Below are positions 32,334 through 64,000 of a stretch of DNA of 64,000 bases, one piece after another. The number at the start of each line of letters is the position of its first letter. The stretch's first letter is position 1. The translations under genes and the position numbers were made by a program. This DNA is from Acidobacteriota bacterium (GTDB taxonomy: Bacteria; Acidobacteriota; UBA4820; DSQY01): the NCBI GenBank assembly GCA_049591295.1, contig JBAWEQ010000080.1, positions 2,238 to 66,237 on the forward strand. Reading direction: 5' to 3'. A model generated the notes under the pieces. The model ran no database searches. It had not been told where the DNA came from and saw only the letters and a program-made list of their open reading frames with translations.

Positions 32334-32360
32334 CGAGGGAAACCAAGGAGCAGGGAACCT

Positions 32361-32404
32361 GGAGGCAGGGAGGGAACGAGGCCGCGAGCCACCTCCCTGC
32401 CTCT
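32361..32404 (+). terminator. GC-rich hairpin after pilC (possible intrinsic terminator, weak U-tract)
   Basis: ggaggcagggagg ... cctccctgcctct, 12/13-bp stem, followed by tggcttcgtctcc. Confidence 0.35.
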
Positions 32405-33226
32405 TGGCTTCGTCTCCTCAGATCACCCGTGCACCTTGTCCTAGAGGGAAGAAGAGGAGCGAGACGTGAGCCGCGAGACGCAAGACGCGAAACGCGAGAC
32501 GCGACGAGGCAAAGCATCCTACGCGGGTCATCCTGAGGGCCCCTTCGGAGGGCCGCTGGCTCAGGGTCCCGTAGCAGAGAGACCACCGGCGGCACCGGAA
32601 CTGCGGGATCCTGTGCTAGTTGCCCGTTGTGGGCTTGCCACAGGATGACGGGAAAAAGGGGGCCAGACGCGAGGCGCGAGGCGCAAGACGTGAGACGCGA
32701 GGGAGCCAACGGTCGAATGGCCACCCCTCTTTTCCGTCATGGCTCCCTAAGCGTTGTTGAGAAAGTCCCCCTTCCGAGGCCGTCATTCGGGCGAGCGGAG
32801 CGAGTCCAGAATCCGAAGCCACGGCGGCGGACAGGAAAGGCTGGGGCCGCAGGTCGCGGTCTAAAGCCGGCATCCCGGCCTCTCGATCCCGTTCACCCGC
32901 AAAAACGACGGGGCTCTCTGGCGCGCAGACTTCCTCCCCGTTTCCCGGCCTTCCGACCTCCTACTACTCCGACACCAATAGGGTTGACTCTTTGCAAAGG
33001 ACAGCTTCGAAGTGGGGATGGGAGAGCAGCGAGGCCGAAGCCTGAGCCTGCCCCCGCGAAGGCGGGGGGGCCTGCTTGCGAAACCAGCCCACCGCGGTGG
33101 GCTTTCCCCAGCCGAGCGCCGAGAGGGAAGGGGCCAACCCCTTCCCTCTCGGATTGGTAACTTCCCAACCTCCGCCTCCGCGCGCTATCATTTTCTCCAT
33201 GACGATTGCCGGGAATCCCTAAGGCC

Positions 33227-47750: not shown

Positions 47751-49361
47751 TCACTTCTCCTCGTGGTACTCCTGCTCGGTGTTGACGGCCCAGAGGTTCT
47801 CCTTGGAGGTGATCCCGGCCAGGATGTTGTCCACGGCGGTCATGGCGCAGAGCATGGAGTGGTCCTGGTTGTTGTACTTGTGCATACCGTTGCGGCCAAT
47901 GGGGTAGAGGTTCTCCAGGCCGTCCAGGAAGCTCCGCACCACGTCGAAGCGGTCGTAGGTGCCGAAGTAGGCCGGGTAGGTCTTGGGCTGACGGATCACC
48001 ACGCGGTCCAGCACATCCTCGGGCTCGATCACGCCGATGGCGGCCAGTTCCCTCACCGCCAGCTCCCCGATGGCCTCGTCCGTCATGCCCCAGAAGTCGT
48101 CCCCCTCGTTGCAGAAGTACTCCACGCCCATCCAGACGGTGGAAGGGTCGGCCACCAGGTAGGGGCTCCAGTTGTTGAAAAGCTGGAGGCGCCCGATCTT
48201 GACCTCCGGCTCCTGGATGTAGATCCAGTTGTCGGGGATGATGCCGTTCACCGTGGGAATCCGGCTCTCGTTCTCGATCTTCAGCTTGCGCAGCAGCACG
48301 CCCACGGTGACGAAGTCGCGGTAGACGAGGCCCGCCGCCACCTCGGCCGCTTCCGCCGGCACTGTGCCCCCCATGGCCGCCACCAGGTCCTTGATGGCCA
48401 TGGTGGAGAAAAAGATATCACCTGACAGCTCGTGCCTCTCTCCCGTGACCTCGTTCTCCGTGACCACCGCCTCGATGTGCCCGGGCGACCACCGGACACC
48501 GACCACCTTCTGGTTCAGCCGCACCTCGCCGCCCGCCGCCGCCACCTGGGCGGCCACCGTCTCCCACATCTGTCCCGGCCCGAGCTTGGGGTAGAGGAAG
48601 CGCTCGATGAGGCTCGTCTGGGTGCCTTTCTGGGCGATGCCTGCCCGGCTGCGGAAGGGTTTGGCCAGCGCGTGGAAAACGGCGCTCCACACCGAGAGCC
48701 CCTTCACCCTCTGGGCGCCCCATTCGGGCTTGATGACGGAGCAGGGCACGCCCCACACCTTTTCGGTGTAATCGCGAAAGAAGGTGTTGTAGAGCTCCCG
48801 GCCGAAGCGGTTGACGAAGAAGTCCTCCAGGGAGCGCTCCTCGCGTATGGGGAAGAGCGAGGCCCTCAGGTAGCTGAAGCCGATGCGCACGAGGCGCATG
48901 AGGCCCATCTTCCGCAGGGTATCCAGGCTCAAGGTGATGGGATAGCTAAAGAACTTGCGGAGGAACAGGATCCGCGACAGGCGCTGGCGCACCAGCATGA
49001 CGAGGTTCTCACGCTCGGGGTCGGGGGCGGGCCGCGACACCGCCTCGCCTCGAAGCCCGCGCGTCCTCGCCTCCTTCGCCAGGGGGATCTCCCGGCCCAG
49101 GAGCCGGTCGTCCCGCGAGGGCGCCCCCTGCATGGGCAGCACGTTCTGCCACCACTCCATCACCCGGTCCGACTTAGAGAAGAAGCGGTGGCCGCCGATG
49201 TCCATCCGGTTGCCCTTGTGGACCACCGTCCGCGCGATGCCGCCGATCTCCCCCGTGGCCTCAAGGACGATGGGCTTAACGTCGGTGCGGTCCAGCAGCT
49301 CCCACGCCGCCGTCAACCCCGCCGGCCCCGCCCCGATGATGATCGCGGTCTTAGCGGCCAT
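47751..49361 (-). CDS. NAD(P)/FAD-dependent oxidoreductase (amine-oxidase / phytoene-desaturase-like)
   Basis: Rossmann GxGxx[17 protein letters not shown] directly after the ATG at 49361 (alternative GTG start at 49427). Confidence 0.65.
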
Positions 49362-49454
49362 GAGACGCTGTCTCCACGGCAAGTATGCTTCCCATGGCGC
49401 AACCTCGTCGAGCCAAGAATGCGGCACGGGGAGCCCCTAACGCCATTCCGGCAG

Positions 49455-51080
49455 TCATCGTCGCTCCGGATGGGCGGCAGGCTTCACCGCCATGTCGGCC
49501 CTGCCGACAATCAGCAATCCGGTGCAGCGAGCCAAAGGCCTGTAGTGGAGACTGACCCAGCCCACCACTGGGTCGCCTGGGTCAGGGCCATAGCGCCCGT
49601 CGAGGAGAATCCAATCGGGTGGCTTGGCCGCCAGGTGAGCGAGGAGGTCGTGCACCATCGCGGGATCGAAGCGGCCCATGTCGAAGTTATCATAGGGCGT
49701 GGCCCCCACCCTGCGCAGGACGAAGGAGTAGAAGGAGCAGTAGTCATAGCAGAAGACGCTCTGGCCGGGCTGCAGAAAGCGCTTCTGGAACTGATACAGC
49801 AGTTCCCATGAGGGCTTACTTTGGGCTACCTCAGTAGTCAGCTTGCCTGACGGGAAGTCGAAAGAACTCCTCGGGGCGAGGTAAGGATAGGGCAGGGAGG
49901 TGGTCGCCACGGTGATAGCCAGCGGGAGCATGAGTCCGGCACCCGTAAGCCGGGAAAACCATCGAGGCTGGCACTTCCTGACCCGTTCCCATTCCCAGAG
50001 AATCAGTAGGAACGCACCCGGAAAGGCAAAAATCAGGGTCATGACCGTGGGCCTGTGCAGGGCCATCAGCACCAGTGCCCCGGTCATACAGAGCAGGACC
50101 AGCCATGGCCACCGCTCCTCTTCGGAGAGTCTCCGCAAGCGCGCGCTCCTCAGCAGGGTGAGCGCTACTGCCACGGGAAAAACCAGAAACACTACCGCCA
50201 TGCCGACACCTTGGCCCAGGTCGTTCGCGAGGGTCCAGGCATCCCCCGTCCTCCACACCGCCGGCAGCGCCCGAAAGGTCGCAGACCATCCCTGTCCCCA
50301 TCCCACGCGATTTCCCGGGTTGTCATGGTAGAGCCTCAACGGCGCCCAGAGGAGGTCATCGAGGATTTGCGAAGCGGGCACCTTCGCCAGCAGAGTGACC
50401 ACGATCGGGCCTGCCACTACGAGTCCCCCGCCCACGAATAGCCCGATTTTCTTCCAGCGCCGTTCCCCGCCCGAGAGCAGCAACAGTAGGATGACGAGAA
50501 GCACCCAGTAACCGCCTTCGTCCTGCAACATGAGTCCGCCGGCCCCGGCCAAGGCGCCCGAGGCGAACAGCAAACCCCGCCTCTCCCCCCGGTCGGAGAG
50601 GGCGAGACACGCCGCCGACAGAAAGAGCGCCGCATTCACCATCCAGTGATGGCTGACGATCGGCCACACCACAAAGCCCACCGCAACCTGCGACAGGAAC
50701 AGCACCGCCAGCGAGGCCCGCGAAAGATTTAGGGCCTTCCCTAAGAGCGCAAGACCCAGCAGCATCACGCCGTTGACCAGCCACGCGAGCCACCGGGCCG
50801 CCACCAGCGTTGTCCCGAAGAGGCGCAGCCACCCCGCAATAAGATAAAGGGACCCGGGTGCTACAAAGAAAAAGAAGTCCCTGTAAGGCACCTGCCCGTG
50901 CAAAATCCTCAGGGCGCCCGCAAGCAGCACCCCCTCGTCCCCGGAACTGAATTCCAGGAAGGTCAGGTGCAGATACTGCAAGGGCTCCCACAGGGCCAAG
51001 GCGAACAACAGCCAGGGGAGCACCCGCTTGACCCTTTCCCCCAGGCTTGTCGTCCCCTTCTCTACCGCCGCCTCGCTCAT
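49455..51080 (-). CDS. GT39/ArnT/PMT_2-like GT-C membrane glycosyltransferase
   Basis: First periplasmic loop GDEGVLLAGALRILHGQVPYRDFFFFVAPG resembles the PMT_2 DE...P motif; about 12 TM; the ORF-track N-terminal extension is probably not translated. Confidence 0.45.
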   Translation of the reverse strand: MSEAAVEKGTTSLGERVKRVLPWLLFALALWEPLQYLHLTFLEFSSGDEGVLLAGALRILHGQVPYRDFFFFVAPGSLYLIAGWLRLFGTTLVAARWLAWLVNGVMLLGLALLGKALNLSRASLAVLFLSQVAVGFVVWPIVSHHWMVNAALFLSAACLALSDRGERRGLLFASGALAGAGGLMLQDEGGYWVLLVILLLLLSGGERRWKKIGLFVGGGLVVAGPIVVTLLAKVPASQILDDLLWAPLRLYHDNPGNRVGWGQGWSATFRALPAVWRTGDAWTLANDLGQGVGMAVVFLVFPVAVALTLLRSARLRRLSEEERWPWLVLLCMTGALVLMALHRPTVMTLIFAFPGAFLLILWEWERVRKCQPRWFSRLTGAGLMLPLAITVATTSLPYPYLAPRSSFDFPSGKLTTEVAQSKPSWELLYQFQKRFLQPGQSVFCYDYCSFYSFVLRRVGATPYDNFDMGRFDPAMVHDLLAHLAAKPPDWILLDGRYGPDPGDPVVGWVSLHYRPLARCTGLLIVGRADMAVKPAAHPERR

Positions 51081-51934
51081 CGAAACAGGCTCACCTTTCT
51101 CACCGCGAAGTTCCAGACGAACACCAGCGCCGTCGTGATGAGCTTGGAGTACAGGTAATAAAGGCCGGCCACGCTGGTGAGGAGCCACATGGAGAGATCG
51201 TTGAGCCCTAGCCCTAGCACGCCCACGAGCGCGAAGAGTCCAAATTCCACCCAGCGGTTGCTCACTGCTCGCTTACTGAACACCCACAGGACGCTGAAGG
51301 TATAGTTGATGATGAGCCCCACCACGAAGGCGAGGGTGGCCGAGGTGAGGTAGTAGAGGCCGCCGTAATGGGTGAGGGCGTACAGGAGCCCGAAATCTAT
51401 TACGAAAGCCGCCCCGCCCACCACCGTGTAACGGAAGAATTGGACCAGCGTGCTCTCGGTAGGCGTGCCGAACAAGTCCTTCAGGATGGTCTTCACCTCT
51501 TGGCCAGCCTGCCATATATCGGAGCGCAGATCCCCTTTCGACTCCCGGAAGACGAAGCGCCGCATGAGCAGGAAGGAGATCATCGCTGAGGGCAGCGTAG
51601 CCACCGCAGCCGTCACAAGCACGTGTACACCAAGCTCTTTGAAGAGCCTCAGAACCCCTACCCCCACCACGTACATGAAGCCGTAAACCCCGAAAAAACG
51701 CACAATCAGCCGGTTATCACGACTCTTGAAAACGATGGTCCCCGTCGTTTTGAAGTTGAAGAGAATTCCAAGGATGGTCTCGATGAGAGCAGCCAGAGCA
51801 TAGTGCAGGCCCAGCAGAATGAAGAGGGCGAAGACCGAGTAGCCGAAGAGGGTGTTGATACCGCCCACAAAGAGGAAGCGGATAAAAGGTACGGCCCAGA
51901 GCCTCCGAATAGTAGCGGGCAGGGCCAGAGGCAT
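51077..51934 (-). CDS. Tandem (duplicated) GtrA-like flippase-type membrane protein
   Basis: Two consecutive GtrA-like repeats each ending in an N(F/Y)xxxxxW(V/I)F-type motif (ILFNFKTTGTIVF; INYTFSVLWVF ... WNFAVRKVSLF); start overlaps the GT2 stop. Confidence 0.6.
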   Translation of the reverse strand: MPLALPATIRRLWAVPFIRFLFVGGINTLFGYSVFALFILLGLHYALAALIETILGILFNFKTTGTIVFKSRDNRLIVRFFGVYGFMYVVGVGVLRLFKELGVHVLVTAAVATLPSAMISFLLMRRFVFRESKGDLRSDIWQAGQEVKTILKDLFGTPTESTLVQFFRYTVVGGAAFVIDFGLLYALTHYGGLYYLTSATLAFVVGLIINYTFSVLWVFSKRAVSNRWVEFGLFALVGVLGLGLNDLSMWLLTSVAGLYYLYSKLITTALVFVWNFAVRKVSLFR

Positions 51935-52956
51935 TACCGGTCCGTGTCGGAGGCCGCTACGTCCCCCGCCTTCTCTGCTTCCCCTTGCTTTCTCGGCTTC
52001 ACAGATCCCGGCTCGTTTAATGGCGGCTCGAAGTTGATCCGTTCCTTCTCGATGACCAGCGGCCGTTTGCGGACGTGCGTGTAGATGAAGCCGATATACT
52101 CCCCCAGAATGCCCGTAAAGAAGAGCTGGATCGACCCCAAGAAAAATACCGCCACCAGGAGTGGCGCAAGTCCAAGCGTGAATTCCTTCCAAAAAAGGAG
52201 CTTGTAGACCAAATACCCCATGCCGACGAGAAAGCTCAGGGCCGACATGGCGAAGCCGAGCATGGTCGCGAGCCTGAGCGGCACCTTGCTGTGGCTCGTA
52301 ATCCCCAACATGGCAACGTCGTACAAGCGGTAGAAGTTATATGTGCTCTTGCCCCTCTTACGCGCAGGTTGGTCGAAGTGGACGAGAGCACGTTCAAACC
52401 CCGCCTCCATGACCAGCCCGCGGAAATACGGATAGGGGTCGTCCATCTTCCGCAGGGCCTCGATGATGCAGCGGTCATAGAGGCCGAAGCCGTAATAATT
52501 CTCGATCAGCTCGATCTCCGAGAGGCGACTCACTAGCCTGTAATAGAACCTCCGGATGGAGTACATCAGCTTCGACTCCCCAGCGCTGCGCTTCACCGCC
52601 AGGACAACCTTGTAGCCCTCCTCCCACTTCTTAATGAACGTCGGGATCAGCTCGGGTGGGTCCTGCAAATCGGCGGCCACGGGTATCACAGCATCGCCCC
52701 GGCATTGCAGGATGCCGTAAACCCCCGACCGCGTTACCCCGAAATTCCGGCTGTTCAAAATCACCTTTACGCGCCTGTCCCGCGCCGCAAGTGTCCGGAG
52801 CTTATCCTGAGTGCCATCCGTTGAAGCGTTATCGATGAAGACGTGTTCATAGACATAATCGTTAAGACCTTCGAAGACCTCCTTTACCCTCGCACACACC
52901 TCCTCGACATTATCAACTTCGTTATAGCAATGGCTTAACACACTCATCAGAACCAT
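51934..52956 (-). CDS. GT2 polyprenyl-phosphate glycosyltransferase (GtrB/ArnC-like)
   Basis: MSVLSHCYNE ... FIDNASTDGT ... AADLQDPPE; C-terminal TM. Confidence 0.8.
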   Translation of the reverse strand: MVLMSVLSHCYNEVDNVEEVCARVKEVFEGLNDYVYEHVFIDNASTDGTQDKLRTLAARDRRVKVILNSRNFGVTRSGVYGILQCRGDAVIPVAADLQDPPELIPTFIKKWEEGYKVVLAVKRSAGESKLMYSIRRFYYRLVSRLSEIELIENYYGFGLYDRCIIEALRKMDDPYPYFRGLVMEAGFERALVHFDQPARKRGKSTYNFYRLYDVAMLGITSHSKVPLRLATMLGFAMSALSFLVGMGYLVYKLLFWKEFTLGLAPLLVAVFFLGSIQLFFTGILGEYIGFIYTHVRKRPLVIEKERINFEPPLNEPGSVKPRKQGEAEKAGDVAASDTDR

Positions 52957-52993: not shown

Positions 52994-54763
52994 TCATAGT
53001 CCCCTCCTCTGCAAAAGAACCCACAACTTCGACTCAGCTACCTTAGTATAGTCTTTCGCCAACATTGCCGCATAATGCCTTTGCATAAAGGCTGAGGTGT
53101 AGGGAATTACCGCTCTCTTGGGTATCATGATTATATCAACAGTTGCGACAAGCTTCTGCACACTTGGAGCCGTTCTCCCCGTCACATTTCCCGTGTAGTT
53201 CCACATCGGCATATCCCACCGTGCACTGGGCAGGCCAAGTGCAAATGGAAACGGATTGGAGTAATCCATTACCATAATGGTGCTCTTCTCTGTAATTCTC
53301 GGCTTCAGTAGCTTCAGCCCATCCTTAATCCAACAGCAATATTCGAAAGCGGTCATTTGCTTAACCCACGGATTCCTAGATAACAGCGCCGACACCCCCT
53401 CATTCTCGGTAAGCGCCGTCTCCCTGTATCTCTGATAACCCTCAAAAACATCATCAACGGCCGAACATCCGTTCTCCTCCACATTTCCCCTTATGACGAT
53501 TTCCGCGGGTGGCAATATAAGTTCTTCGATGCTCTTCTCATGGAACCTACACTTCTCAATAAGCACGGCGTTGCTTTCCTTCCATGACACAGAATTAATT
53601 ACGCTCGCCACATCCGGGACAAGAACCGTCCCTATTAAAAACACCGCCACCACCCAACCAATCCATAGCTCGCCTCCTCTCTCCGCGCCCCTTGAATCCT
53701 GCCCCATCCCTGCCGGTCCCAAGAGATATCCGGCCGCTAAGCCAATCAACGGGATCTGCACCAACTGACCATTTGTACTTGTTACCATAATACTCGCGGC
53801 AACCACTACCATAACTGTAAGCAACACCCGCTGGGACCGCGGCGTCCAGTCGCGGACCACCGCTGCCCATGCGATAAATAACAGCATCAACGGTACACCG
53901 TTACTGTCCAACACCCGCAACAATCCTTCGATTCTGTCCACAGGCTGATAAAGAGGTTCCATTCTCGACAAATCGCTGAGGTATCCCACAATAGATATTC
54001 TCAAGCTGACCCCAAGCACGAATATGACACCTATTACGCCTATTAGTTTCGCAAGCAGGGCCCACCAACGATTACCTCTAATTATATTAGCATAACACAC
54101 AATTCCACACGCCACCAAGAAAAAATTCATTTTGACATAGAACTCCATGCCAATACAAAGAGAACCCAACATAAAGTTCAGACGATCTAGCCAGTCACAA
54201 TGCACTAACCTTCGTGGGAAGATTTCCTCAACGGCAATAATGCACAGCAAAGCCCAACCTACCCTATCATATAGCATCGCATAGGAGGTGCCCTTGTAAT
54301 GGAAGCCAAGCGGATAAGTGGCAATTGGAAGAACAAAGACCATACTCGACACAAGGAAGCACAACAACGCCGGCATTCTTCTGCTACCAATAGACCAGAT
54401 AGCCGCAGCACTCGTAGCCGCGAAAATGCACATGCCAACAGTGATTGCCTGCACTTTTGGCCCCACTATAGCCATTCCTACTCGTATCAAGTCGAGAAAG
54501 AAGTCCCCATAGGGATAAGAAAAATCAATATGCGCCCTTTGGCCACAACATAGTCGCCAGGCTGCATCCAGAAAGATCGTTGTATCCCAAGGAAACATCA
54601 GTTGATGGCTAAATCCCATTCTGAGGACAATCAATACGGTGATCATAACAACACACGCGAACATGCATCCCCAGAACACATACGCCTTCTTGCTAATACT
54701 ACTCACAGCAAAACGAAGATACTCCTCAGCTCTTTCCAGATCCAACCTATTCCTTTGCATCAT
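52994..54763 (-). CDS. Hypothetical polytopic membrane protein (low GC, about 46%)
   Basis: 589 aa, many TM helices; codon use distinctly AT-richer than flanking DNA. Confidence 0.5.
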   Translation of the reverse strand: MMQRNRLDLERAEEYLRFAVSSISKKAYVFWGCMFACVVMITVLIVLRMGFSHQLMFPWDTTIFLDAAWRLCCGQRAHIDFSYPYGDFFLDLIRVGMAIVGPKVQAITVGMCIFAATSAAAIWSIGSRRMPALLCFLVSSMVFVLPIATYPLGFHYKGTSYAMLYDRVGWALLCIIAVEEIFPRRLVHCDWLDRLNFMLGSLCIGMEFYVKMNFFLVACGIVCYANIIRGNRWWALLAKLIGVIGVIFVLGVSLRISIVGYLSDLSRMEPLYQPVDRIEGLLRVLDSNGVPLMLLFIAWAAVVRDWTPRSQRVLLTVMVVVAASIMVTSTNGQLVQIPLIGLAAGYLLGPAGMGQDSRGAERGGELWIGWVVAVFLIGTVLVPDVASVINSVSWKESNAVLIEKCRFHEKSIEELILPPAEIVIRGNVEENGCSAVDDVFEGYQRYRETALTENEGVSALLSRNPWVKQMTAFEYCCWIKDGLKLLKPRITEKSTIMVMDYSNPFPFALGLPSARWDMPMWNYTGNVTGRTAPSVQKLVATVDIIMIPKRAVIPYTSAFMQRHYAAMLAKDYTKVAESKLWVLLQRRGL

Positions 54764-54824
54764 TACTTACCCCAATCCACTTTCCTATCTACTTCATCCA
54801 CCGCTTCCGGCCCCGCTATCACCA

Positions 54825-55736
54825 TTACCATCCCTCCAGCGCTGTACCAGCGGGGCGTTCCTGCCAATCTTGAAGTGCCTGAGCAATAGAATGAATGTCG
54901 TTCAAGCCCACGACGCTGCTAAGGCGCTCTAGCCTTAGTCCTCCATTCAAGGGTCGCTTAGCCTTTTGATGCAAATTAGCTGTTAGGCATCCATCAATCC
55001 AAGAAGTATCGCCATTCCACCTCTGCACAATCGCTACAGCAAAGTCAGCCCTGCTAAGCAACTCCATTCCGACAACGTTGACAATTCCCTCCGCATTACT
55101 TTCCAGAAGGCCTTTTACCACCTTGGCCAAATCTCGACTGTAGGTTGGAGTCGATATTTGGTCTGAGGGCACTCTAATGTGCTGCCCAGCGTGGAGTTGC
55201 CGAAACAGTCGATATACAAAGTTTTTCCCCCTGTATTCCGGGCCATAGATCCCAGTCGAACGAACAATAAGGGCGCGTCGGTCAGCAGCCAAGACCATCC
55301 GCTCTCCTAGAAGCTTGCTTCTACCATATACCGACAGTGGGCGCGCCGAATCTTCCTCCGAGTAAGGTCCAGCGATACCATCGAAGACATAATCCGAAGA
55401 GAGATATACAAAGCGCCCTCCGCGATTGCTGACCTCCTCCGCCAGGTTCGCTGGAATCGAGGCGTTCGCTCTAAGTGCTCTCTTCTCGTCATCCTCACAA
55501 GCGTCCACATCGCTCCAACCCGCAGCGTATACCACGTGCTTTGGCCTGGCGGCATCAAGCACATCCCTCATTGCAAGAAACCCAGCGCCATTTGTGCGGA
55601 GGTCGATACTTACGACTCCAGCCGTATTTCTTGCCTCGCGATCCACACCTAGCGCAGAATCACCAAGGCACTCCATTAGTGCGCTGCCAACTAAGCCCCG
55701 AGCTCCAACCACTAGCACCGTGCCCACGTCAGCCAT
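54825..55736 (-). CDS. rmlD: dTDP-4-dehydrorhamnose reductase
   Basis: VLVVGARGLVGSAL Rossmann, YxxxK (YGRSK), RmlD-like length (303 aa from the ATG at 55736). Confidence 0.75.
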   Translation of the reverse strand: MADVGTVLVVGARGLVGSALMECLGDSALGVDREARNTAGVVSIDLRTNGAGFLAMRDVLDAARPKHVVYAAGWSDVDACEDDEKRALRANASIPANLAEEVSNRGGRFVYLSSDYVFDGIAGPYSEEDSARPLSVYGRSKLLGERMVLAADRRALIVRSTGIYGPEYRGKNFVYRLFRQLHAGQHIRVPSDQISTPTYSRDLAKVVKGLLESNAEGIVNVVGMELLSRADFAVAIVQRWNGDTSWIDGCLTANLHQKAKRPLNGGLRLERLSSVVGLNDIHSIAQALQDWQERPAGTALEGW

Positions 55737-56178
55737 TCTTGATGGCCCAAGTGTACGGAATCGTGCAGTCATCCCAAGGCAGCCGCTTCATCTCACCTTC
55801 TCTGTATTCTGTCGTGGCGACATTGCATAGCATACTTGGATACACTGCAATGCCCCTGAAGCCGTTCCAGATTGCAGGGGGGATCTGTACAAGGTAATAG
55901 CATTCCGGACCCAGGTATATCTCCTGCACCTCTCCCCGCGTCGGAGAACCCACCCTATCGTCATACAGAACCAGCTTAATAAGGCCATGTGGACAGCAAT
56001 AATTCAGAGTCATCTCGGAATGAAGATGCCACCCCTTCACGACACCCGGATTGATCCACGAGAAATATACCTCACCAACCACCCCGAACTCCTTATCGCT
56101 TCTTTTGATCATATGCATAATTTTGCCACGCTCATCTACGATTATCTCTCTCGCTGCCATTCGCACACCCTCAATCAT
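55729..56178 (-). CDS. RmlC-like cupin (dTDP-sugar 3,5-epimerase / WxcM-type 3,4-ketoisomerase family)
   Basis: 149 aa cupin with GEVYFSW ... GWHLH motif. Confidence 0.55.
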   Translation of the reverse strand: MIEGVRMAAREIIVDERGKIMHMIKRSDKEFGVVGEVYFSWINPGVVKGWHLHSEMTLNYCCPHGLIKLVLYDDRVGSPTRGEVQEIYLGPECYYLVQIPPAIWNGFRGIAVYPSMLCNVATTEYREGEMKRLPWDDCTIPYTWAIKNG

Positions 56179-56206
56179 GGCTCCTCCGCAAATAGCGCTT
56201 GTCTGA

Positions 56207-57067
56207 TCAACCTAACCACCACTCATCACGCATCTTGATTCGCGCCACTATTGATACGACTGTTGTTCTGGCAACATAGTTCAGCACCGCCATTGCGTAT
56301 GCAGCCACCATATCACCTCGCTTGGCTTCATCATGGCCTTTGAAGCTCGAACTTCTAATGAAACGCACGAAATCACAAATCTGGCGCTTTCCAATCTCTC
56401 CACTCCAGGCTTTCCTGGACGCCCGAAATCCACAAAGGACTTCCCCTAGAACAACCATGTCTCCCAATTCCAACAGGCGGACCCAATAATCCAAATCTAT
56501 CATGTAGGGAATCCGTCCATCGAAGCTTCCCGCCACAGCGCTATCAGACCGCCTGAACAACACCGCGCTTGGCTCTCCCACAACGTTGGTTCCATGCCGC
56601 GCCGAGGCCGCTAACACGGCCTGTCTTGCGTATCGACCTGGCTTGAGTGGACAACGCCTCCGAATAAGAATCTGTCCCTTCTCCCCAATTATTCGACGAC
56701 CACATGTAACCAGCGTAATACCGTTGCCTCCTTCGCCTTCAAGCGTTTCCACTTCTCTAGCAATACACATGGGGTCTAGCACATCATCCGCGCATAATAG
56801 CTTGACGTATTTTCCGCTGGCCAGGCTTAGGCAGCGATTCCAATTCGCCTCTGCGCCTATATTCTCTTCATTGCGGTAATGCCGAATTCGCGGATCCACA
56901 AAACCCGAAATAATCTCATAAGTCCGATCAGAGGAGCAGTTGTCGACTACTATCACTTCAACGCTTGGGAAATGTTGCGCCAGGGCTGATTCAAGAGACT
57001 CCAGAATATAAGCCTCCGCATTGTATGTCGGGATGCAGATAGAAACCGTCGGGGTCATTGTTGACAT
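56207..57067 (-). CDS. GT2 family glycosyltransferase
   Basis: VSICIPTYNAEAYI ... VIVVDNCSSD ... CADD. Confidence 0.8.
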   Translation of the reverse strand: MSTMTPTVSICIPTYNAEAYILESLESALAQHFPSVEVIVVDNCSSDRTYEIISGFVDPRIRHYRNEENIGAEANWNRCLSLASGKYVKLLCADDVLDPMCIAREVETLEGEGGNGITLVTCGRRIIGEKGQILIRRRCPLKPGRYARQAVLAASARHGTNVVGEPSAVLFRRSDSAVAGSFDGRIPYMIDLDYWVRLLELGDMVVLGEVLCGFRASRKAWSGEIGKRQICDFVRFIRSSSFKGHDEAKRGDMVAAYAMAVLNYVARTTVVSIVARIKMRDEWWLG

Positions 57068-57339
57068 CTCCCAATGCTACCGTCTCTGACTTACTACTCC
57101 GGCATCATTATGGTATACCCATCACGGGCTAAAACCCTTGTACAGCATTGGCCGTCGGTTTTACAGCTACAACTCTAATGGTGCCTCATTAGTAGGTGGC
57201 TATTGGACAGGCCCCTAACCTCGAACTCCTTCGCGAGATCAACTCCTCCCGTACAGATGTCATTACCCTCCTTCTTACCACCATGCCTCCGCGACTGGAG
57301 TGGTAACATTGTACCAGCGATGCGTTCTCTTCTGAGCAT

Positions 57340-58401
57340 TCAAGGGTTATTCCCCACAACTTCGCCGATCACTTGCTTGACGATATAGAGAGGTCTACGC
57401 TTGGTCTCACGAAAGACACGAGCTAAATACTGCCCTATCAGGCCTAAGGACAACAATTGGGTACCCTCCAGAAACAGAATGACTACAAGAAGTGATGTCC
57501 AACCTTGGATCACCGTCTCTGGATGCATGAGTTTGCTCACAATGAGCCAGACAATCATCACAAATGATCCACACGTCAAAAGAAAGCCTAGCTGCCCCAC
57601 CATGGCAAGTGGCCTATCCGAAAAGCTCGTTATTCCAGCCATCCCAAGCGATATCATCCTTCCAAGGCTATAGTGCGTCCTGCCCGCATAACGTCGGTCG
57701 CGCTCATAATAAATACAGGTCTGCTTGAAACCTATCCATGGGATTAGGCCTCGAAGGTACCGACTTTCTTCTCTCATCGTTCTCAAGATCGTAACGATAT
57801 GCCTGTCCAAGAGCCTGAAATCTCCCGAATCCAGGGGCAAAGAAATGTTGCTCAGTAAGCTAAGGAGTCTATAGTATGTTGTTGCAGTAAGGCGCTTAAA
57901 TGGTGATTCACCCTTTCGACTCCTCCTAACAGCACATACTACTTTCGAGCCTTGTTCCCAATGATCTATCATTGCAGGTATGATTTCTGGTGGATCTTGC
58001 AAATCCGAATCAATGATAACAACGGCATTGCCCCCTGCATAATCTAGGCCTGCGGTAATGGCGCATTGATGACCAAAGTTCCTGGACAAACTAATAACTC
58101 TGACTGTGTTATCACATTTGCAGAGGCCTTCAAGAATATTGAGTGTTTGGTCTTTGCTACCGTCATCGACAAAGACTAGTTCGTGCTCCCAGCCCTTGAG
58201 ACCATCGGCGACTGCTTTAAGTCGCCGATAGAACTCGTGCAGGGTGTCCTCCTCTTGATAAACTGGAGCTACGACGGAAAGAAGCTTGGCCCTCGGCGGC
58301 AGGGCCACTTTTCCCTCCCCTAAACCCTGCTCATTTTCAACAGGGGAGCGCAAGTCTTTACCCGTTGGCACCACCGGCATAGGATTAGATTCCCCTTTCA
58401 A
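57340..58401 (-). CDS. GT2 polyprenyl-phosphate glycosyltransferase (ArnC/GtrB-like) with C-terminal TM helices
   Basis: [14 protein letters not shown] ... VFVDDGSKD ... DSDLQDPPE. Confidence 0.8.
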
Positions 58402-59467
58402 AGATCTGCCTCCTCAACCTGTCGCTATATGCATACGGCGTATCAACCATGTCGATCATGACGGGGGCGTCCTGGGGGCACTCCTTGATGACCATCTGGC
58501 CGCGCATGACTTCGCGGCAGGAGAGCTGGCCCTTCTGGAGGGGGATCGCGAGGTAGAGGTCCTCGTCTTTGATCAGGTCCCCGACCTGAAGATCGCGGGC
58601 GGCGTAAACGCCGCGGACGAGGGAGTCGAGGTAGCGGATCTCCTTCTCGGGGACGATGCGCCGCTGGCTCCCCGGATTGCCGCACATTTCGCGCGCCTTG
58701 TGCCAGGATTTGAACCAGTTGTCGATCTGTTCAGGCAGGGAGCAGTAGGGGCTGACCTTCGCGGTCCCTTCGTCGATGTCCACGTGGCGCTCGAAGGTCC
58801 GCGCCCCTTTAGCGTAGGCCATCAGGATGGAGGCCGTCCAGTCGTGGTACTCATGGGTGGAGAAGCCGACGGTGTTGTTGGGGTAGCGGTGTCTCAGGAA
58901 ATCGATCTGGTTCAGCTCCAGCTCGTAATCCTCCGAGGGGTACATCGCCACGCAGTGGTTGATAGCCAGAGGGATGTTGCGGTTGGCAAAAAAGGTCACC
59001 AGGTCGTCCATATCCTTCAGAGAACAACCGCCGGTGGAAACGATGACCGGTTTGCGGGTCTTGGCGATGGCCTCGATGAGGAACCAGTCGTTGATGTCCG
59101 AGCTGGCGATCTTGATTATGGGCAGCCCCAGCTCCACGCAGAGCTCCACGGAGCTCTCGTCGAAAGGGGTGGCCATGGGGATGCAACTGTTCTTGCGGAT
59201 CGCCTCCGTGAGCTTGGCGAAGTCCTCCCGGGACATCTGGGTGTCGAGCGTCTTCTTGATGTAGCGGATGTCCTGGCGGTCGCGGAAGTCCTTGTGAATG
59301 AAGCGCTCCACGTCGCGGAACTGGAGCTTCATGGCCGCCCGCACGTTGTTGAAGCGAACCACGCGGCTGTAGTCCTCGATGATCTTCAACCCGCGCTCCA
59401 GCTTGCCCCAGTGGTTGTTGGCGATCTCGAGAACGAAGAGGTCTTCGAAGACGTCCCTGTCGATCAT
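58385..59467 (-). CDS. NeuB-family nonulosonic acid synthase (N-acetylneuraminate / pseudaminate / legionaminate synthase-like) with C-terminal SAF domain
   Basis: [17 protein letters not shown] motifs; about 360 aa from the ATG at 59467. Confidence 0.7.
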
Positions 59468-59570
59468 CTCGCCCTCCCGTGGGCTGCCGTACAAAATAGC
59501 AAAAAGCGTGCCGCCTATCCGCCCTCCACTCTACACCCTCCACCCTCCACAGCGCTCCACCCGACTGACA

Positions 59571-61388
59571 CTATTTGGAAGTGTACTCATCCCGCAGGGG
59601 GCCGAGCAAGTTTTCGGCGAACTCTTGCCGGTCGAGGAAGGGGGCCATGTCATGGAGCGGGGCCGAGACGATGCGCCCGTCGGAGAGTTGGCGGGAACTG
59701 GGCCTGGGCTCGAAGGTCTGCCGCGGATCCAGCACCACCCTTGCCACGCCGGGGCCCGGCGTGGCAAGGAAGGTCTCAGTCAGGTTCCGGAAGCCCTCTC
59801 CCTCGATCTTTACCGCCGGCAGGCCGTAGGCCTCCGCGAGCCGACAGGGGTCGGGGAAGGAGACGCCACTTTCAGGGCTTTCCCCAATCAGCTCGCCAAA
59901 GAAATTCTTCTGGGTGGTCCGGATGGAGAGGTAGCCGCCGTTGTCGAGGACGAAGAGCTTGACGGGCAGGCGGTGGTGGGCAACGGTCTGGAGCTCCTGG
60001 ACGTTCATTTGAAGGCTCCCGTCCCCGGCCAAGCAGATGACCCGCGCTCCTCCCCGCGCCACGGCCGCGCCGATAGAAGCGGGCAGGTCGTAGCCCATGG
60101 AGGCGCTACCCGAGTTGGAGAAGAGCCTCTGGCCGCGCTTCAGCCTGGCCGCCTGGAAGGGGACGATGGTGGCCGTGGCGTTGCCGCAGACCACCGCGTC
60201 GTCTTCGGTGAGCAGATCGAAGAGCGTCTCCACGAAGTAGTAGGGATTGATGCCCCCCTCGGTGGTCCGCTGGCGGGCCAGGACGGGCGGATAGCGTTTC
60301 ACCCGCTCGCGGCACCACTGGAGCCAATGCGCGTGGCGCCCCGCGTCCCAAGCTTTCGCTTTGAGCTGTCGCCCCATCTCTTCGAGGAAGAGCCCCGCGT
60401 CGCAGGCGATGGCCAGTTCTGGGCGCGCCGTGGGTTTGGCTAGCTCGGCCCGGTCGGCGTCCACCTGAATGAGGAAGGCGTGGGGCGCGAAGGCCGGCCA
60501 GTTGTAGCTCACCTGGCGGATGTTGAGGCGGCTGCCGATCACCAGCAGGCAGTCTGCGTTCTGCACCGTGAAGTTGCCGGCGCGCGTCCCGATGGTGCCA
60601 GGCCGGCCACAGTAAAGAGGGTGATCCGAAGGGATCAGGTCGTGCGTCCAGGCGGTGGTGACCGGGATGCCGAACCGCTCGGCCATGCTCAGGAAAAGGT
60701 CCGCCGCGCCCGCCAGGCGCACGCCAGTTCCGGCCAGCAGGACGGGCCGCTCTGCCGCGGAGAGGCGCTCCCGGGTCTGTCGCACCTGCTCCGGCAAGCG
60801 CCCCAGCTCCCAATCGGGTGGGTCCTCGGAGGGGTCATAGGACCGAAGCGCGTCCGGCTCCACCCTGCTGCCTTGCACGTCGATGGGGATGTCCAGCCAG
60901 CAAGGGCCGGAGCGGCCGGTTTGGCAGAGGTGCCAGGCCTTCTCCAGGTGATAGCGGGTCTCCTCGGGCGCGCGCACCAGGGCGGCGTATTTGGTGATGC
61001 CCTTCACCATGGAGACGATGTCCGCCTCCTGGTCGCCGAGCTGGCGCAGGCCCGGCACTTGGTTGAAGGCCATGCAGGTCTCTCGCTTCACCTGCCCGGA
61101 GATGACGAGCATGGGAATGGAGTCGGTCCAGGCCCCGAAGACGCCGTTGAGGGCGTTGATGCCGCCCGGCCCCGTGGTGACGCTTACGACCCCCGGCGTG
61201 CCCGTGATGCGCGCGTAGCCTTCTGCCGCCATGGCACAGGCCTGTTCGTGGTGCTGGCAGATGGGGGTGATACGCGTCTCCTTGCGCAGTGAATCGTTGA
61301 GGTGCATGGCCCCCCCGCCCGTCACCAGGAAAACGTGGCGAACACCGCGATCGGCGAGGAAAGAGAAGACGTAGTCGGAGAGCTTCAT
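59571..61388 (-). CDS. Thiamine-diphosphate-dependent enzyme of the acetolactate-synthase-large-subunit family (YerE-like sugar C-branching enzyme candidate)
   Basis: N-terminal Pyr domain, central FAD-like domain, C-terminal GDGS...N ThDP motif (AGDGSLQMNVQEL). Confidence 0.8.
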   Translation of the reverse strand: MKLSDYVFSFLADRGVRHVFLVTGGGAMHLNDSLRKETRITPICQHHEQACAMAAEGYARITGTPGVVSVTTGPGGINALNGVFGAWTDSIPMLVISGQVKRETCMAFNQVPGLRQLGDQEADIVSMVKGITKYAALVRAPEETRYHLEKAWHLCQTGRSGPCWLDIPIDVQGSRVEPDALRSYDPSEDPPDWELGRLPEQVRQTRERLSAAERPVLLAGTGVRLAGAADLFLSMAERFGIPVTTAWTHDLIPSDHPLYCGRPGTIGTRAGNFTVQNADCLLVIGSRLNIRQVSYNWPAFAPHAFLIQVDADRAELAKPTARPELAIACDAGLFLEEMGRQLKAKAWDAGRHAHWLQWCRERVKRYPPVLARQRTTEGGINPYYFVETLFDLLTEDDAVVCGNATATIVPFQAARLKRGQRLFSNSGSASMGYDLPASIGAAVARGGARVICLAGDGSLQMNVQELQTVAHHRLPVKLFVLDNGGYLSIRTTQKNFFGELIGESPESGVSFPDPCRLAEAYGLPAVKIEGEGFRNLTETFLATPGPGVARVVLDPRQTFEPRPSSRQLSDGRIVSAPLHDMAPFLDRQEFAENLLGPLRDEYTSK

Positions 61389-61420
61389 GGAAGCCTCTTG
61401 CGGCGGCGCGAGGCGCGAGA

Positions 61421-61700
61421 TGGGATGCGGAGGCGACTCGTAGGAGGCCTCTCCAGAGGCCGATGCGCCGGATTCCTCCCACCCATCGCGCCCTGGAGAG
61501 CGCTCCTACGTGAGGCGGGACGCGAGACGCGAGACGCAAAACGCGAGACGCGAAACGCGAGACGCGAGACGCGAGGCGCAAGACGCGAGCGGCGAGACGC
61601 GAGATGGGATGAGGAGGCGACTCGTAGGAGGCCTCTCCAGAGGCCGATGCGCCGAATTTCTCCCACCCATCGCGCTCTGGAGAGCGCTCCTACGCCGGGC
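61421..61700. repeat. Composite repeat: two about 90-100-bp direct repeats (each with an imperfect palindrome GTAGGAGGCCTCTCCAG / CTGGAGAGCGCTCCTAC) separated by a (GCGAGAC)n array
   Basis: Direct reading of 61421-61510 against 61601-61700. Confidence 0.85.
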
Positions 61701-61830
61701 CGGTGGCGAGAAGCGGGACGCAAGACGCGAGACGCGGGAGACGGGGCGCAAAAGGCGAAGACAGCCTCGAAGTCAGGACGTTGGTGTGACGGAGGGGAAT
61801 GGAAACAAGCTGCAGTGAGGGCCTCTTCCA

Positions 61831-62709
61831 TCATTTGTCCACCAGGAGGAGCTCCCGCCGGATGAGATGGCGGTGCTCGGCGTACCAAGCGTACAGGGAA
61901 CGGACGGCGTGCTCCAAGGGGGTGAAGGGGAAGCCCGGCACCTCGGCCTTGAGCCGCCGGTTGTCGCCGCTGTATTCCACGCCGAGGCCGGGCTGCGCGA
62001 TGCGGACCGGCAGCTCTTTTCCCGAAATCCTCACCACCATCTCGGCCAGCGTTTTCAGTTCCACCGCCTCATCGGGTGTGACGTTGTAGGCCCTGTGGGC
62101 CGGCTCAGCCAGCAGGAAGTGCCGTACGATCCTCACGAGGTCGTCCACCCAGAGGTAGTCGAAGCGCCGGTTCTGCCTCAGCGTCACGGGCAGGTCGAAG
62201 AGCGTCTTGCAGATGGCGTTGGAGATGAAGCGGATCTCCCAGTCCTCGTAATTGCCGAAGACGCCGAAGGGGCGGAGCTCCACCACGTTGTCGAGACGTT
62301 CAGCGTATCGCGCGCAGAGATACTTGGAGTAGCCCGTCTCGTCCACCGGGACGTGAGTCCCGAAGAAGGGCTCCGCCATCTTGGGAGCAAAGAACCGCTG
62401 GTCGTAGACCGCTCCGGAGGTGATGAGGATCATCCGCCCGTAGCCCGTCTCGTTGCGAACGATGTTGTGGAACATTCGCGTGTTCGCGTAGACGAGCCCC
62501 GCCGGGTCTTTGGCGTTCCGGTGGCCAGGCTTGGTCGCACAGTGGACGACCGCATCCACTGGGCTCGCACGCAGAAAGGACGCCACGGCCTCCTCGTCGA
62601 GAAGATCCAGCTCGGCGTGACCGGGTGCAAGCAGATCAAATTCCTGTTCAAGTTGTTCCGCCAAGTTTCGGCCGATGAAGCCGCTGGCTCCGGTGATCCA
62701 GACTTTCAT
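61831..62709 (-). CDS. NAD-dependent epimerase/dehydratase (extended SDR)
   Basis: ITGASGFIGRNL Rossmann, YxxxK (YSKYLCARY). Confidence 0.8.
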   Translation of the reverse strand: MKVWITGASGFIGRNLAEQLEQEFDLLAPGHAELDLLDEEAVASFLRASPVDAVVHCATKPGHRNAKDPAGLVYANTRMFHNIVRNETGYGRMILITSGAVYDQRFFAPKMAEPFFGTHVPVDETGYSKYLCARYAERLDNVVELRPFGVFGNYEDWEIRFISNAICKTLFDLPVTLRQNRRFDYLWVDDLVRIVRHFLLAEPAHRAYNVTPDEAVELKTLAEMVVRISGKELPVRIAQPGLGVEYSGDNRRLKAEVPGFPFTPLEHAVRSLYAWYAEHRHLIRRELLLVDK

Positions 62710-62713
62710 CCGG

Positions 62714-64000
62714 TCAGCCTCCCGGCTTTGCCAGCCTGACGAACTCCCTGAGGCTCTCTACCATGAAATCCACCATCGCATCGGTCAGGCCCGGGTAAAC
62801 CCCGAGCCAAAAGACTCGCTCCATGACGAAGTCGGAGTTCTTGAGGTCGCCGACGACGCGCTTGGGGACTGCGAGGTAGGCGGGCTGGCGGGTGAGGTTG
62901 CCGCCGAAGAGGAGGCGGGTGGCGATCTTGCGCTGGTTCAAGAAGTCCAGCACCGCGGCCCGGTCGAAGGGGGCGTCGGGACGGACGGCGAGGGGGAAGC
63001 CGAACCAGCTCGGGTCGCTGCCCTCCGTCGCTTCGGGCAGAACAAAGAGGTGGCCGAGGTCTTGAATGCCCTCGTAAAGCCTCTTGAAATGGCGTTTGCG
63101 GGCCTCGATGAAGCCGGGCAGCTTGTCGAGCTGGGCCAGGCCGATGGCCGCCTGCAGGTCCGTGGCCTTGAGGTTGTAGCCCACGTGCGAGTAGACGTAC
63201 TTGTGGTCGTACCCCTGGGGCAGCTCGCCGAGTTTCCAGCCGAAGCGCTTCCCGCAGGTATTCTCCTTGCCGGGCAGGCACCAGCAGTCCCGCCCCCAGT
63301 CGCGGAAGGATTCGACCAGCTTCTTGAGCAGCGGGTGGTCCGTGAGCACGCAGCCCCCCTCACCCATGGTCATGTGGTGGGCGGGGTAGAAGCTCACCGT
63401 CGCCAGGTCGCCGAAGGTGCCGACGTTCTTGCCGCGGTAGGTAGAGCCGACGGCGTCGCAGCAGTCCTCGATGAGCCAGAGGCCGCGGGCCTTCGCGAAG
63501 GCGGTCACCGCCTCCACATCGAAGGGGTTGCCCAGGGTGTGGGCCAGCATGACGGCTTTGGTCTTCGGCGAGAGGGCCGCTTCCAGCTGGCTCGAGTCCA
63601 CGTTGTAAGTGGGGAGCGTCACATCCACGAAAACCGGTACAAGGCCGTTCTGGAGGATCGGGTTCACGGTCGTTGGAAAGCCAGCCGCCACGGTGATCAC
63701 CTCATCGCCGGGTCTGAGCCTGCGCTCCCCGAGCTGGGGCGAGGTGAGGGCCGAGAGGGCGAGCAGGTTCGCGGAGGAGCCCGAGTTCACGAGCAGCGCG
63801 TGGCGCCGGCCCATAAACACCGCGAAGCGGCTCTCGAACCGCGTGGCGTACGGCCCGGCCGTGAGCCAGAAGTCCAGGGCCGACTCCACCAGGAGGACCA
63901 GCTCCTCCGCGTTGAAAACCCGTCCGGCATAGGGCACCGGTGAAGTTCCCGGAACGAATTCCTTCGGAGGAAAGGCCGCGGCATGGTAGCGGCGTACCTG
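62714..64000 (-). CDS. rfbH: PMP-dependent CDP-6-deoxy-D-xylo-4-hexulose 3-dehydrase (E1; RfbH/DdhC family), N-terminus beyond window end
   Basis: DegT-fold, but with the diagnostic His in place of the PLP lysine ([14 protein letters not shown]) and the RDCWCLPG...NTCGKRFG Cys motif. The reading frame stays open upstream of the annotated GTG to the window edge ([14 protein letters not shown]...). Confidence 0.7.

Follow-up and report, generated by a model that had tools for sequence, protein, structure and literature searches.

Carbon-branched 3,6-dideoxyhexoses such as yersiniose, erwiniose and caryophyllose are rare, strongly antigenic surface sugars. The chemistry of their branching was recently unified as a sequence in which an aldolase, a carboligase dependent on thiamine diphosphate (ThDP) and a reductase act in turn (PMC9306805). 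We describe here the last part of a 64,000-nucleotide stretch of an Acidobacteriota genome (contig JBAWEQ010000080.1; this whole stretch is called the window), in which genes for an E1 dehydrase, an extended short-chain dehydrogenase/reductase (SDR) and a ThDP enzyme are followed by a gene for a divergent enzyme of the NeuB family, named NeuBL throughout this cassette. With a confidence only a little better than even, we propose that the window holds one copy of a widespread six-to-nine-gene cassette for a CDP-activated, C-4 carbon-branched 3,6-dideoxyhexose, and that NeuBL supplies the branch precursor.

The early steps of such pathways, from glucose-1-phosphate to the 4-keto-3,6-dideoxy sugar, and ThDP-dependent branching with keto acids made by an aldolase are established for relatives of the pathway proposed here (PMC9306805). 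In the yersiniose A pathway of Yersinia pseudotuberculosis (DdhA-D, YerE and YerF), as in the cassette, CDP-glucose is converted with E1 to CDP-4-keto-3,6-dideoxyglucose, and a ThDP enzyme of the acetohydroxyacid synthase (AHAS) superfamily that attacks the C-4 ketone is combined with an NAD(P)H-dependent reductase. YerE, compared by its description, uses pyruvate, makes a C2 branch and has no gene for keto-acid supply beside it, whereas the cassette has a fixed NeuB-family partner and lacks a gene for E3 (DdhD). The erwiniose type, represented by ErwE, ErwF, ErwI and ErwJ of Pectobacterium atrosepticum and by the JanthE locus, shares with the cassette a gene order in which the cytidylyltransferase comes first, then the dehydratase, E1 and the ThDP enzyme, and later a family 2 glycosyltransferase (GT2), as well as the logic by which an α-keto acid is made, decarboxylated and added to the sugar ketone (PMC9306805). 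In the JanthE locus, the cytidylyltransferase, dehydratase and E1 genes lead to JanthE and an SDR, after which come an acetaldehyde dehydrogenase (DmpF type), a 4-hydroxy-2-oxovalerate aldolase (DmpG type), another SDR and a GT2. This layout equals the erwiniose organisation reported for Pectobacterium (PMC9306805). The SDR gene follows the ThDP gene in the JanthE locus and precedes it in the cassette. For erwiniose, the aldolase and dehydrogenase pair was proposed to make 4-hydroxy-2-oxopentanoate, ErwE was found in vitro to use the keto acid, but not pyruvate, as donor to a ketone that mimics the sugar, and a final reduction of the branch by a reductase was proposed; the same scheme was put forward for caryophyllose and gastriose (PMC9306805). 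The latter sugars (Mycobacterium marinum MMAR_2331-2333; M. gastri MyGE) resemble the product predicted here in bearing long polyhydroxyalkyl branches at C-4 of a 3,6-dideoxyhexose, placed by a ThDP carboligase with an extended donor range; they differ in that, by description, their aldolase is HpcH/citrate-lyase-like and uses pyruvate instead of phosphoenolpyruvate (PEP), and in that they occur in actinobacterial lipooligosaccharides. Of the genes that the "unifying scheme" names (PMC9306805), those for the deoxy-keto sugar, the ThDP enzyme, the NAD(P)H oxidoreductase (here an SDR with a non-canonical motif) and a glycosyltransferase occur together here, with NeuBL in the slot of the pyruvate aldolase. 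The part of the cassette between 58385 and 64000 consists of the following features.

62714 to 64000, running past the window end, minus strand: E1/RfbH/DdhC, a CDP-6-deoxy-4-hexulose 3-dehydrase (NF011936).
61831 to 62709, minus strand: extended SDR of 292 residues in the YerF/ErwF slot (PF01370, 77 bits).
61389 to 61830: spacer of about 440 bp from the SDR gene to the ThDP gene, with a duplicated element of about 95 bp and heptad arrays.
59571 to 61388, minus strand: predicted YerE/JanthE-type ThDP-dependent carboligase of 605 residues, with three ThDP domains.
58385 to 59467, minus strand: NeuBL, a divergent PEP-condensing enzyme of the NeuB family by its sequence, 360 residues (PF03102, 131 bits).

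All long open reading frames with host-like codon usage between 58385 and 64000 lie on the minus strand and are read in the order E1/RfbH, SDR, 440-bp spacer, ThDP enzyme and NeuB-like enzyme. Pfam and NCBIfam identified the four families (E1, SDR, ThDP and NeuB), in agreement with the positions, orientation and families given by a first-pass annotation of this DNA. Against NF011936 (RfbH), whose equivalog cut-off is 423, the portion of E1 encoded in the window scored 701 bits and the complete protein 730 bits. The complete protein has 442 residues, as deduced from an overlapping contig (L084; related contigs and loci are numbered in this way), and its first 14 codons lie beyond the window; the frame is open to base 64000, and the GTG at 63937 that the ORF tool chose is not the E1 start because no stop codon precedes it. 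His222 occupies the position of the Schiff-base lysine of DegT aminotransferases (motif SFYPAH(222)H), and 58 of 60 homologues from the cassette have a histidine there. The spacing of the cysteines is exactly C195-X57-C253-X-C255-X7-C263, a pattern kept in 53 of the 60, and corresponds to C-X57-C-X1-C-X7-C, which we take to be the [2Fe-2S] motif of E1. The histidine-for-lysine exchange and the cysteine motif, both of which had been read from the letters beforehand, were thus borne out together with a family score well over the cut-off.

The sequence beyond base 64000 came from L084, a 3.8-kb short-read contig of the same sample that was recovered by an exact-sequence look-up of the SDR gene; it overlaps the window from 61626 to 64000 with 0 mismatches and extends 1411 bases past the end. 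Two genes precede E1 in this contig, a cytidylyltransferase, present as its C-terminal part, and a 4,6-dehydratase. The dehydratase (328 residues) had as its best model the CDP-glucose 4,6-dehydratase TIGR02622, with a score of 188 bits that does not reach the cut-off of 278; this model was only slightly ahead of that for the dTDP-glucose enzyme. The C-terminal 133 residues of the glucose-1-phosphate cytidylyltransferase matched the second half of TIGR02623 with 194 bits, and the full-length orthologue in L007, a locus whose E1 is 94% identical to that of the window, reached 383 bits against an equivalog cut-off of 300. The gene content thus identifies a CDP-glucose pathway and not the GDP-mannose (ColD-type) pathway that had been named as an alternative, because the dehydratase and the cytidylyltransferase stand directly past 64000, before E1, and the L007 orthologue of the cytidylyltransferase exceeds its cut-off. 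The first-pass annotation had expected a cytidylyltransferase, a 4,6-dehydratase and an E3 gene beyond the window end; the first two were there, while E3 was not found in the 1.4-kb extension.

The ThDP enzyme has the catalytic glutamate (HHE48Q) and the GDG...N cofactor motif. It scored below the cut-off of all AHAS equivalog models, the best giving 325 bits against 538, and in a search of the PDB its top match was 8rph, JanthE of Janthinobacterium sp. HH01, with 426 bits, compared with about 230 for AHAS. The alignment with JanthE ran from end to end with 38% identity and included a C-terminal extension of about 40 residues that both proteins have and AHAS lacks. The places of the two engineering hotspots of JanthE, Y297 and K567, are taken here by Y295 and R562, and the canonical GDG stands where JanthE has an unusual CDG. 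JanthE is a characterised YerE-like carboligase that accepts ketones and takes pyruvate among its donors (PMC12188165). From sequence comparison we conclude that the enzyme is YerE-like and not an acetolactate synthase, which upholds the earlier description; membership in a single "YerE clade" is a possibility, with YerE, ErwE and MMAR_2332 compared by description.

Scanning one genome per species, we obtained 449 proteins related to the ThDP enzyme and examined the 80 best loci. The usual gene order was cytidylyltransferase, 4,6-dehydratase, E1, SDR, an optional methyltransferase, ThDP enzyme, an optional phosphatase of the haloacid dehalogenase (HAD) type, NeuB-like enzyme and GT2. Of the 80 loci, 76 had a NeuB-like gene; in 75 it lay on the strand of the ThDP gene, and the median distance between the two genes was 82 bp. 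E1 was found in 58 of these loci, so that the ThDP gene belongs to a CDP-3,6-dideoxyhexose cluster there as it does in the window with L084; the corresponding numbers were 56 for GT2, 55 for the cytidylyltransferase, 50 for the 4,6-dehydratase, 42 for the methyltransferase and 23 for the HAD phosphatase. In the reverse test, metagenome loci were collected with NeuBL as the seed, and a ThDP gene was seen in 51 of 80; each of the other 29 has less than 2 kb of sequence on the ThDP (upstream) side. NeuBL thus stood beside a ThDP gene in all 51 informative metagenome loci, and the genome and metagenome loci together represent several phyla. The pairing is effectively obligate in both directions, and NeuBL is therefore part of the module and not a chance neighbour. 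Carriers belong to the Acidobacteriota, Planctomycetota, Smithella, Syntrophaceae, Chloroflexota, Verrucomicrobiota, Rhodocyclaceae and Nitrosomonadales, and a carrier in Sulfurimonas was found by a separate look-up.

NeuBL probably begins at the ATG at 59467 (360 residues) and not at the TTG at 59494, since most of the listed homologues have 359 to 361 residues. Like NeuB, PseI and LegI, it has the PF03102 domain, a C-terminal SAF-like region (aligned to residue 318), two histidine ligands and the PEP-binding lysines and serines, and it would be expected to condense PEP and an aldehyde to a 3-deoxy-2-ulosonic acid as they do. Unlike them, it reaches about one third of the family cut-offs (117 bits against 399.65 for NeuB, TIGR03569; 115 bits against 340.25 for PseI, TIGR03586), has the residues for N-acetylmannosamine (ManNAc) replaced, has a ThDP gene alongside, and lacks genes for CMP activation or other steps of nonulosonic acid (NulO) synthesis. 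Its best PDB match was 3g8r (224 bits), whereas genuine NulO synthases gave at most 89 bits. We mapped its residues on NeuB of N. meningitidis and on 120 homologues, with the roles of the metal, PEP and ManNAc contacts taken from PMC11339185. The metal ligands H205 and H228 (H215 and H236 in NeuB) and the PEP contacts K47, K119, S122, S144 and S203 (K53, K129, S132, S154 and S213) were invariant among the homologues. In NeuB, Arg314 contacts the N-acetyl group and was reported to be essential, and Asn74 contacts the 6-OH of ManNAc (PMC11339185). The equivalents in NeuBL are I308 (family consensus Ile or Val) and R64, an arginine that is nearly invariant in the family, and Asp247 of NeuB is replaced by S239 (consensus Ser). 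NeuBL looks catalytically competent and adapted to a different acceptor, and the arginine at the Asn74 position suggests an acceptor with an anionic, perhaps phosphorylated, tail; by these residues it is not a sialic acid synthase. The 3g8r protein, a "probable spore coat polysaccharide biosynthesis protein E" of Chromobacterium violaceum from structural genomics, resembles NeuBL in how it deviates from NeuB in the ManNAc site: similar exchanges occur at four of the five positions considered (N74 to R, N184 to A, D247 to N and R314 to F in 3g8r), whereas at the fifth, E134, it has Ser and NeuBL has Asp.

Public automatic annotations label the pair "acetolactate synthase large subunit" and "sialic acid synthase SpsE", which would make the one a housekeeping enzyme of branched-chain amino acid synthesis and the other a sialic acid synthase. 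We consider this scarcely credible. The AHAS, NeuB and PseI equivalog models all fell far below their cut-offs, the ThDP enzyme has the C-terminal extension of JanthE, and no gene for a regulatory small subunit was seen among the annotated neighbouring reading frames; moreover, the ManNAc-binding residues are lost and the pair sits in a CDP-deoxysugar operon in most loci. Both identities were rejected on family scores, residues, the extension and context.

A more serious alternative is a plain yersiniose type of pathway, in which the ThDP enzyme would use pyruvate to make an acetyl branch, the SDR would reduce it to 1-hydroxyethyl, and NeuBL would act separately to make a nonulosonic or other ulosonic acid of the same glycan. 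This was in essence the earlier prediction, and precedent for it exists: YerE carries out two-carbon branching in Yersinia (PMC9306805), JanthE takes pyruvate (PMC12188165), and E1, an SDR and a ThDP enzyme suffice for yersiniose. Nevertheless, a single pathway is suggested by the fact that, across phyla, NeuBL and the ThDP gene are almost always neighbours on one strand, a median of 82 bp apart. Neither a CMP-NulO synthetase nor the 2-epimerase and aminotransferase set appeared in Pfam annotations of the window from 36 to 64 kb or of four related loci (L002, L003, L085 and L086), and NeuBL, far under the NeuB and PseI cut-offs, is without the arginine that binds the N-acetyl group. In addition, the JanthE and erwiniose clusters carry an aldolase that makes a keto acid in the slot held here by NeuBL. 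The view that the NeuB-like gene is a nonulosonic-acid gene beside the module was not sustained, and since NeuBL is an obligate partner of the ThDP enzyme and not an independent nonulosonic gene, a two-carbon branch is less likely than a longer branch derived from the NeuBL product. We regard the yersiniose type as unlikely.

Enzymes of the NeuB family make 3-deoxy-2-ulosonic acids, which are α-keto acids. The slot for α-keto-acid supply is held by an aldolase pair in the JanthE and erwiniose lineage and by a NeuB-family enzyme here. The erwiniose type obtains its keto acid through a pyruvate aldolase of class II together with an acetaldehyde dehydrogenase (BphI/BphJ or DmpG/DmpF type), whereas the cassette has a PEP-dependent NeuB-family synthase in this place, sometimes together with an HAD phosphatase, a methyltransferase or an AroB-like cyclase. 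No DmpF or DmpG homologue was found in the window or in 164 NeuBL loci; HpcH-type aldolases were not searched for. A literature search found no paper that ties a NeuB-family enzyme to YerE-like enzymes or to E1 clusters.

The optional genes bear on the substrate of NeuBL. The HAD protein, found between the ThDP and NeuBL genes in 23 of the 80 loci, resembles phosphoglycolate phosphatase. A sugar-phosphate cyclase related to AroB (TIGR04425, 339 bits) is accompanied by a short-chain dehydrogenase in L007, L010, L081, L076 and L051; this variant adjoins the ThDP gene and lies between it and NeuBL in L007 (positions 6308 to 8064), L010 and L081. The occurrence of the phosphatase and the cyclase as optional neighbours hints at a phosphorylated NeuBL substrate, and the cyclase variant raises the possibility of a carbocyclic branch. 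L007 and L010 are among the loci closest to the window, which itself has no cyclase. A methyltransferase of about 400 residues that would use S-adenosylmethionine (SAM), with a C2185-like N-terminal domain, usually stands just before the ThDP gene (42 of 80 loci; L002, L006, L013 and others), and it too is missing from the window.

The two enzymes could also act in the reverse order, the ThDP enzyme adding a short aldehyde branch (a formyl or glycolaldehyde unit from glyoxylate or hydroxypyruvate) and NeuBL extending it with PEP to a 3-deoxy-2-keto-acid end. Such an order would account equally well for the tight coupling of the two genes, NeuB-family enzymes require an aldehyde acceptor, and at the family level the ThDP enzyme is equally similar to glyoxylate carboligase and AHAS (224 bits). 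Weighed against this are the phosphatase and cyclase genes between the pair, which point to a free phosphorylated ulosonate, and the arginine at the NeuB position that contacts the distal hydroxyl of a free sugar; we also know of no NeuB-family enzyme that acts on a nucleotide-linked sugar. The rejection of pyruvate by ErwE in vitro indicates that the keto acid is made first, and the same was proposed for caryophyllose and gastriose (PMC9306805). We consider the reverse order improbable.

We return to the proposal that NeuBL acts first and supplies the branch. Glucose-1-phosphate would be converted to CDP-glucose by the cytidylyltransferase and then to CDP-4-keto-6-deoxyglucose by the 4,6-dehydratase, and E1 with an electron donor would strip the 3-OH to give CDP-4-keto-3,6-dideoxyglucose. 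In parallel, NeuBL would join PEP and a small aldose, probably phosphorylated, to a 3-deoxy-2-ulosonic acid. The ThDP enzyme would decarboxylate this acid and add the resulting acyl-anion equivalent to the C-4 ketone, producing a tertiary alcohol with a polyhydroxyacyl branch, and the SDR would reduce the branch carbonyl. The GT2 encoded at 51934 to 52956 would then load the sugar on polyprenyl phosphate, a GtrA protein would flip it, and a PMT_2-like GT-C enzyme would set it on the surface glycan. From the formation of the ulosonic acid onward, including the identity of the aldose and the order of the NeuBL and ThDP reactions, the scheme is what we infer; the product would be a long-branched sugar of the erwiniose or caryophyllose type.

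The SDR is the presumed side-chain or 4-keto reductase. Its best NCBIfam and PDB matches were weak and pointed to GDP-fucose synthase. Across the 80 loci the reductase slot was occupied by an SDR of 360 residues in 58 and by the 292-residue type of the window in 10; the two types are unrelated to each other and never occurred together. The active-site motif in the window is TGYSK and not YxxxK, with a tyrosine shifted by two residues that is conserved in six sequences. In the family alignment, the subgroup to which the window SDR belongs has T, S or A in place of the canonical tyrosine, and more distant members of the clade retain YGxSK.

The spacer between the SDR and ThDP genes contains two copies of an element of about 95 bp with identical 41-nucleotide cores at 61429 to 61469 and 61613 to 61653, and the core includes the hairpin GGCCTCTGGAGAGGCC. 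An array of the heptamer GTCTCGC precedes each copy, with 12.9 and 4.4 repeats. The core occurs nowhere else in the window and was absent from 87 related loci, the spacer had no Rfam match, and scans of the spacer and operon for promoters and terminators gave nothing above chance. Two short-read contigs of the same sample (L001 and L084) both end within the spacer.

Between the cassette genes and the genes assigned to export lies a block of different composition. The features on this side of NeuBL are as follows.

52994 to 58380, minus strand: inserted five-gene block of low G+C content at third codon positions (GC3), between NeuBL and GT2_340.
51934 to 52956, minus strand: GT2_340, the native polyprenyl-phosphate glycosyltransferase, 340 residues (best models PgfS and ArnC).
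51077 to 51934, minus strand: membrane protein of the GtrA family with two GtrA domains (PF04138, 126 bits), a putative flippase.
49455 to 51080, minus strand: GT-C (PMT_2-like) membrane glycosyltransferase (PF13231, 27.8 bits, marginally above the cut-off).
47751 to 49427, minus strand: FAD-dependent oxidoreductase (Amino_oxidase, NAD_binding_8; NF005546 (PRK07208.1-2), 844 bits).

GT2_340 is the orthologue of the GT2 that follows NeuBL elsewhere (56-77% identity, 56 loci). The 353-residue GT2 directly after NeuBL in the window was considered as the transferase of the cassette and rejected, being only 33-35% identical to that GT2. The GtrA-family protein has 71% identity with its positional counterpart in L007, and the PMT_2-like protein has 74% identity with the one encoded downstream of GtrA in that locus; L007 has an additional GT2 reading frame between the two. 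The export genes are tightly packed, and two junctions look like 4-bp overlaps with inferred internal starts. A GT2 polyprenyl-phosphate transferase, a GtrA-family protein and a GT-C enzyme downstream of sugar genes are also the components of the GtrA/GtrB/GtrC, ArnC/ArnT and CsbB/GtcA/YfhO systems; unlike in those, the donor here would be a CDP-linked branched sugar. Homologues of the FAD oxidoreductase are found near the cassette in L010, L072, L027, L076, L086, L017 and L085, its gene directly adjoins that of the GT-C transferase in the window and in L086, and it could act on the lipid-linked sugar.

The block encodes a GT2 (PgfS/ArnC-like, 353 residues), a second GT2 (286 residues), an RmlC-like cupin (149 residues), an RmlD-like reductase (315 residues) and a membrane protein (589 residues) with no Pfam match. 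Its GC3 is about 0.5, compared with 0.74-0.92 in the flanking cassette genes and mostly about 0.8-0.9 in genes of the genome, and apart from weak GT2 matches no orthologues of its genes were found in the related loci. The five-gene block is thus an insertion that lies outside the conserved cassette, and it may make a second, unbranched 6-deoxy or 3,6-dideoxy L-sugar from the same CDP intermediates.

This raises the question whether the E1 product goes mainly to an unbranched 3,6-dideoxy or 6-deoxy L-hexose through the cupin and reductase of the block, following the AscE/AscF logic of ascarylose, with the ThDP enzyme and NeuBL inactive or serving another product. The position of the block directly after NeuBL is consistent with such a route, as are its epimerase-type cupin (3ejk, 109 bits), its RmlD-like reductase (190 bits), its two GT2 proteins and large membrane protein, and the atypical catalytic motif of the SDR. 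However, none of the four cassette genes is disrupted, their GC3 is like that of the host and their catalytic residues are retained, and GT2_340 and the native GtrA and PMT_2 genes are still intact downstream; furthermore, an unbranched route can coexist with a branched one, so that the block would be an addition and not a replacement. We attach only a small probability to this explanation. The window is in other respects an ordinary member of the cassette family with a local insertion. Its ThDP and NeuB-like proteins are 68% and 65% identical to those of L007, in comparison with 94% for E1, whereas they are 89% and 94% identical to those of L004, a locus in which neither E1 nor the dehydratase is present between the genes for the cytidylyltransferase and the SDR. 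Such a mosaic among close relatives (L004/L003, L007 and the window) suggests recombination within the cassette.

Upstream of the glycan locus (21064 to 36224) are other genes that do not appear to be related to the cassette. They include, from 21 to 26 kb, subunits of a 2-oxoacid:ferredoxin oxidoreductase and a NuoF-like protein, and from 28 to 36 kb type IV pilus genes (PilB/PilT/PilC-like) with a PilS/PilR-type two-component pair.

Several points weigh against the proposed branched-sugar pathway. Its substrates and product are read from sequence and gene context, and we know of no established precedent for a polyprenyl-phosphate GT2 that uses a CDP-sugar. PpYerE (5ahk) matched the ThDP enzyme with 221 bits, no better than AHAS with 231, and for this reason the label "YerE-like" rests on JanthE and on gene context; by analogy with JanthE, use of pyruvate would leave a two-carbon branch possible. 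The TGYSK motif makes the competence of the window SDR as a reductase uncertain. The window also has no counterpart of the HAD phosphatase that is seen in about a third of the loci. In L085, a Sulfurimonas metagenome-assembled genome, an SDR, NeuB-like and ThDP trio (9102 to 14692, with genes for a short-chain dehydrogenase and a radical SAM/SPASM protein after it) is found with no CDP-sugar genes within 10 kb; this trio may act on another acceptor, or its sugar genes may lie elsewhere. Finally, a search of the window and of the 1.4 kb added by L084 gave no E3 reductase (DdhD/AscD). When the sole E3-like neighbour seen (in L002) was used as the query among the 83 loci available at that stage, an FNR-type flavin reductase adjoined the cassette in 2 of them; no ferredoxin domain was detected in it, and a role as E3 is possible. 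The reductase partner of E1 may be encoded elsewhere or may be a general cellular reductase.

Pathways for ThDP-branched 3,6-dideoxyhexoses are known; what is new is the route of branch supply and the far wider taxonomic range. Tentatively, and with a little less than even confidence, we suggest that several hundred species or more, from the Acidobacteriota, Planctomycetota, Desulfobacterota, Chloroflexota and Verrucomicrobiota and from some Proteobacteria, have co-opted an enzyme of the NeuB family to provide a ThDP carboligase with 3-deoxy-2-ulosonic acids. If this is true, these organisms would make an undescribed class of higher-carbon, C-4-branched 3,6-dideoxy sugars with methylated or possibly carbocyclic variants. 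The cassette would add a PEP-dependent synthase as a branch source to the unified scheme, and would carry that scheme from a few pathogens to abundant, poorly studied phyla of soil and sediment. In biocatalysis there is an active search for ThDP enzymes able to convert polyhydroxylated keto acids into chiral tertiary alcohols. The proposal also gives a testable physiological hypothesis for the 3g8r-like branch of the NeuB family, which, if the proposal holds, would have its first physiological role.

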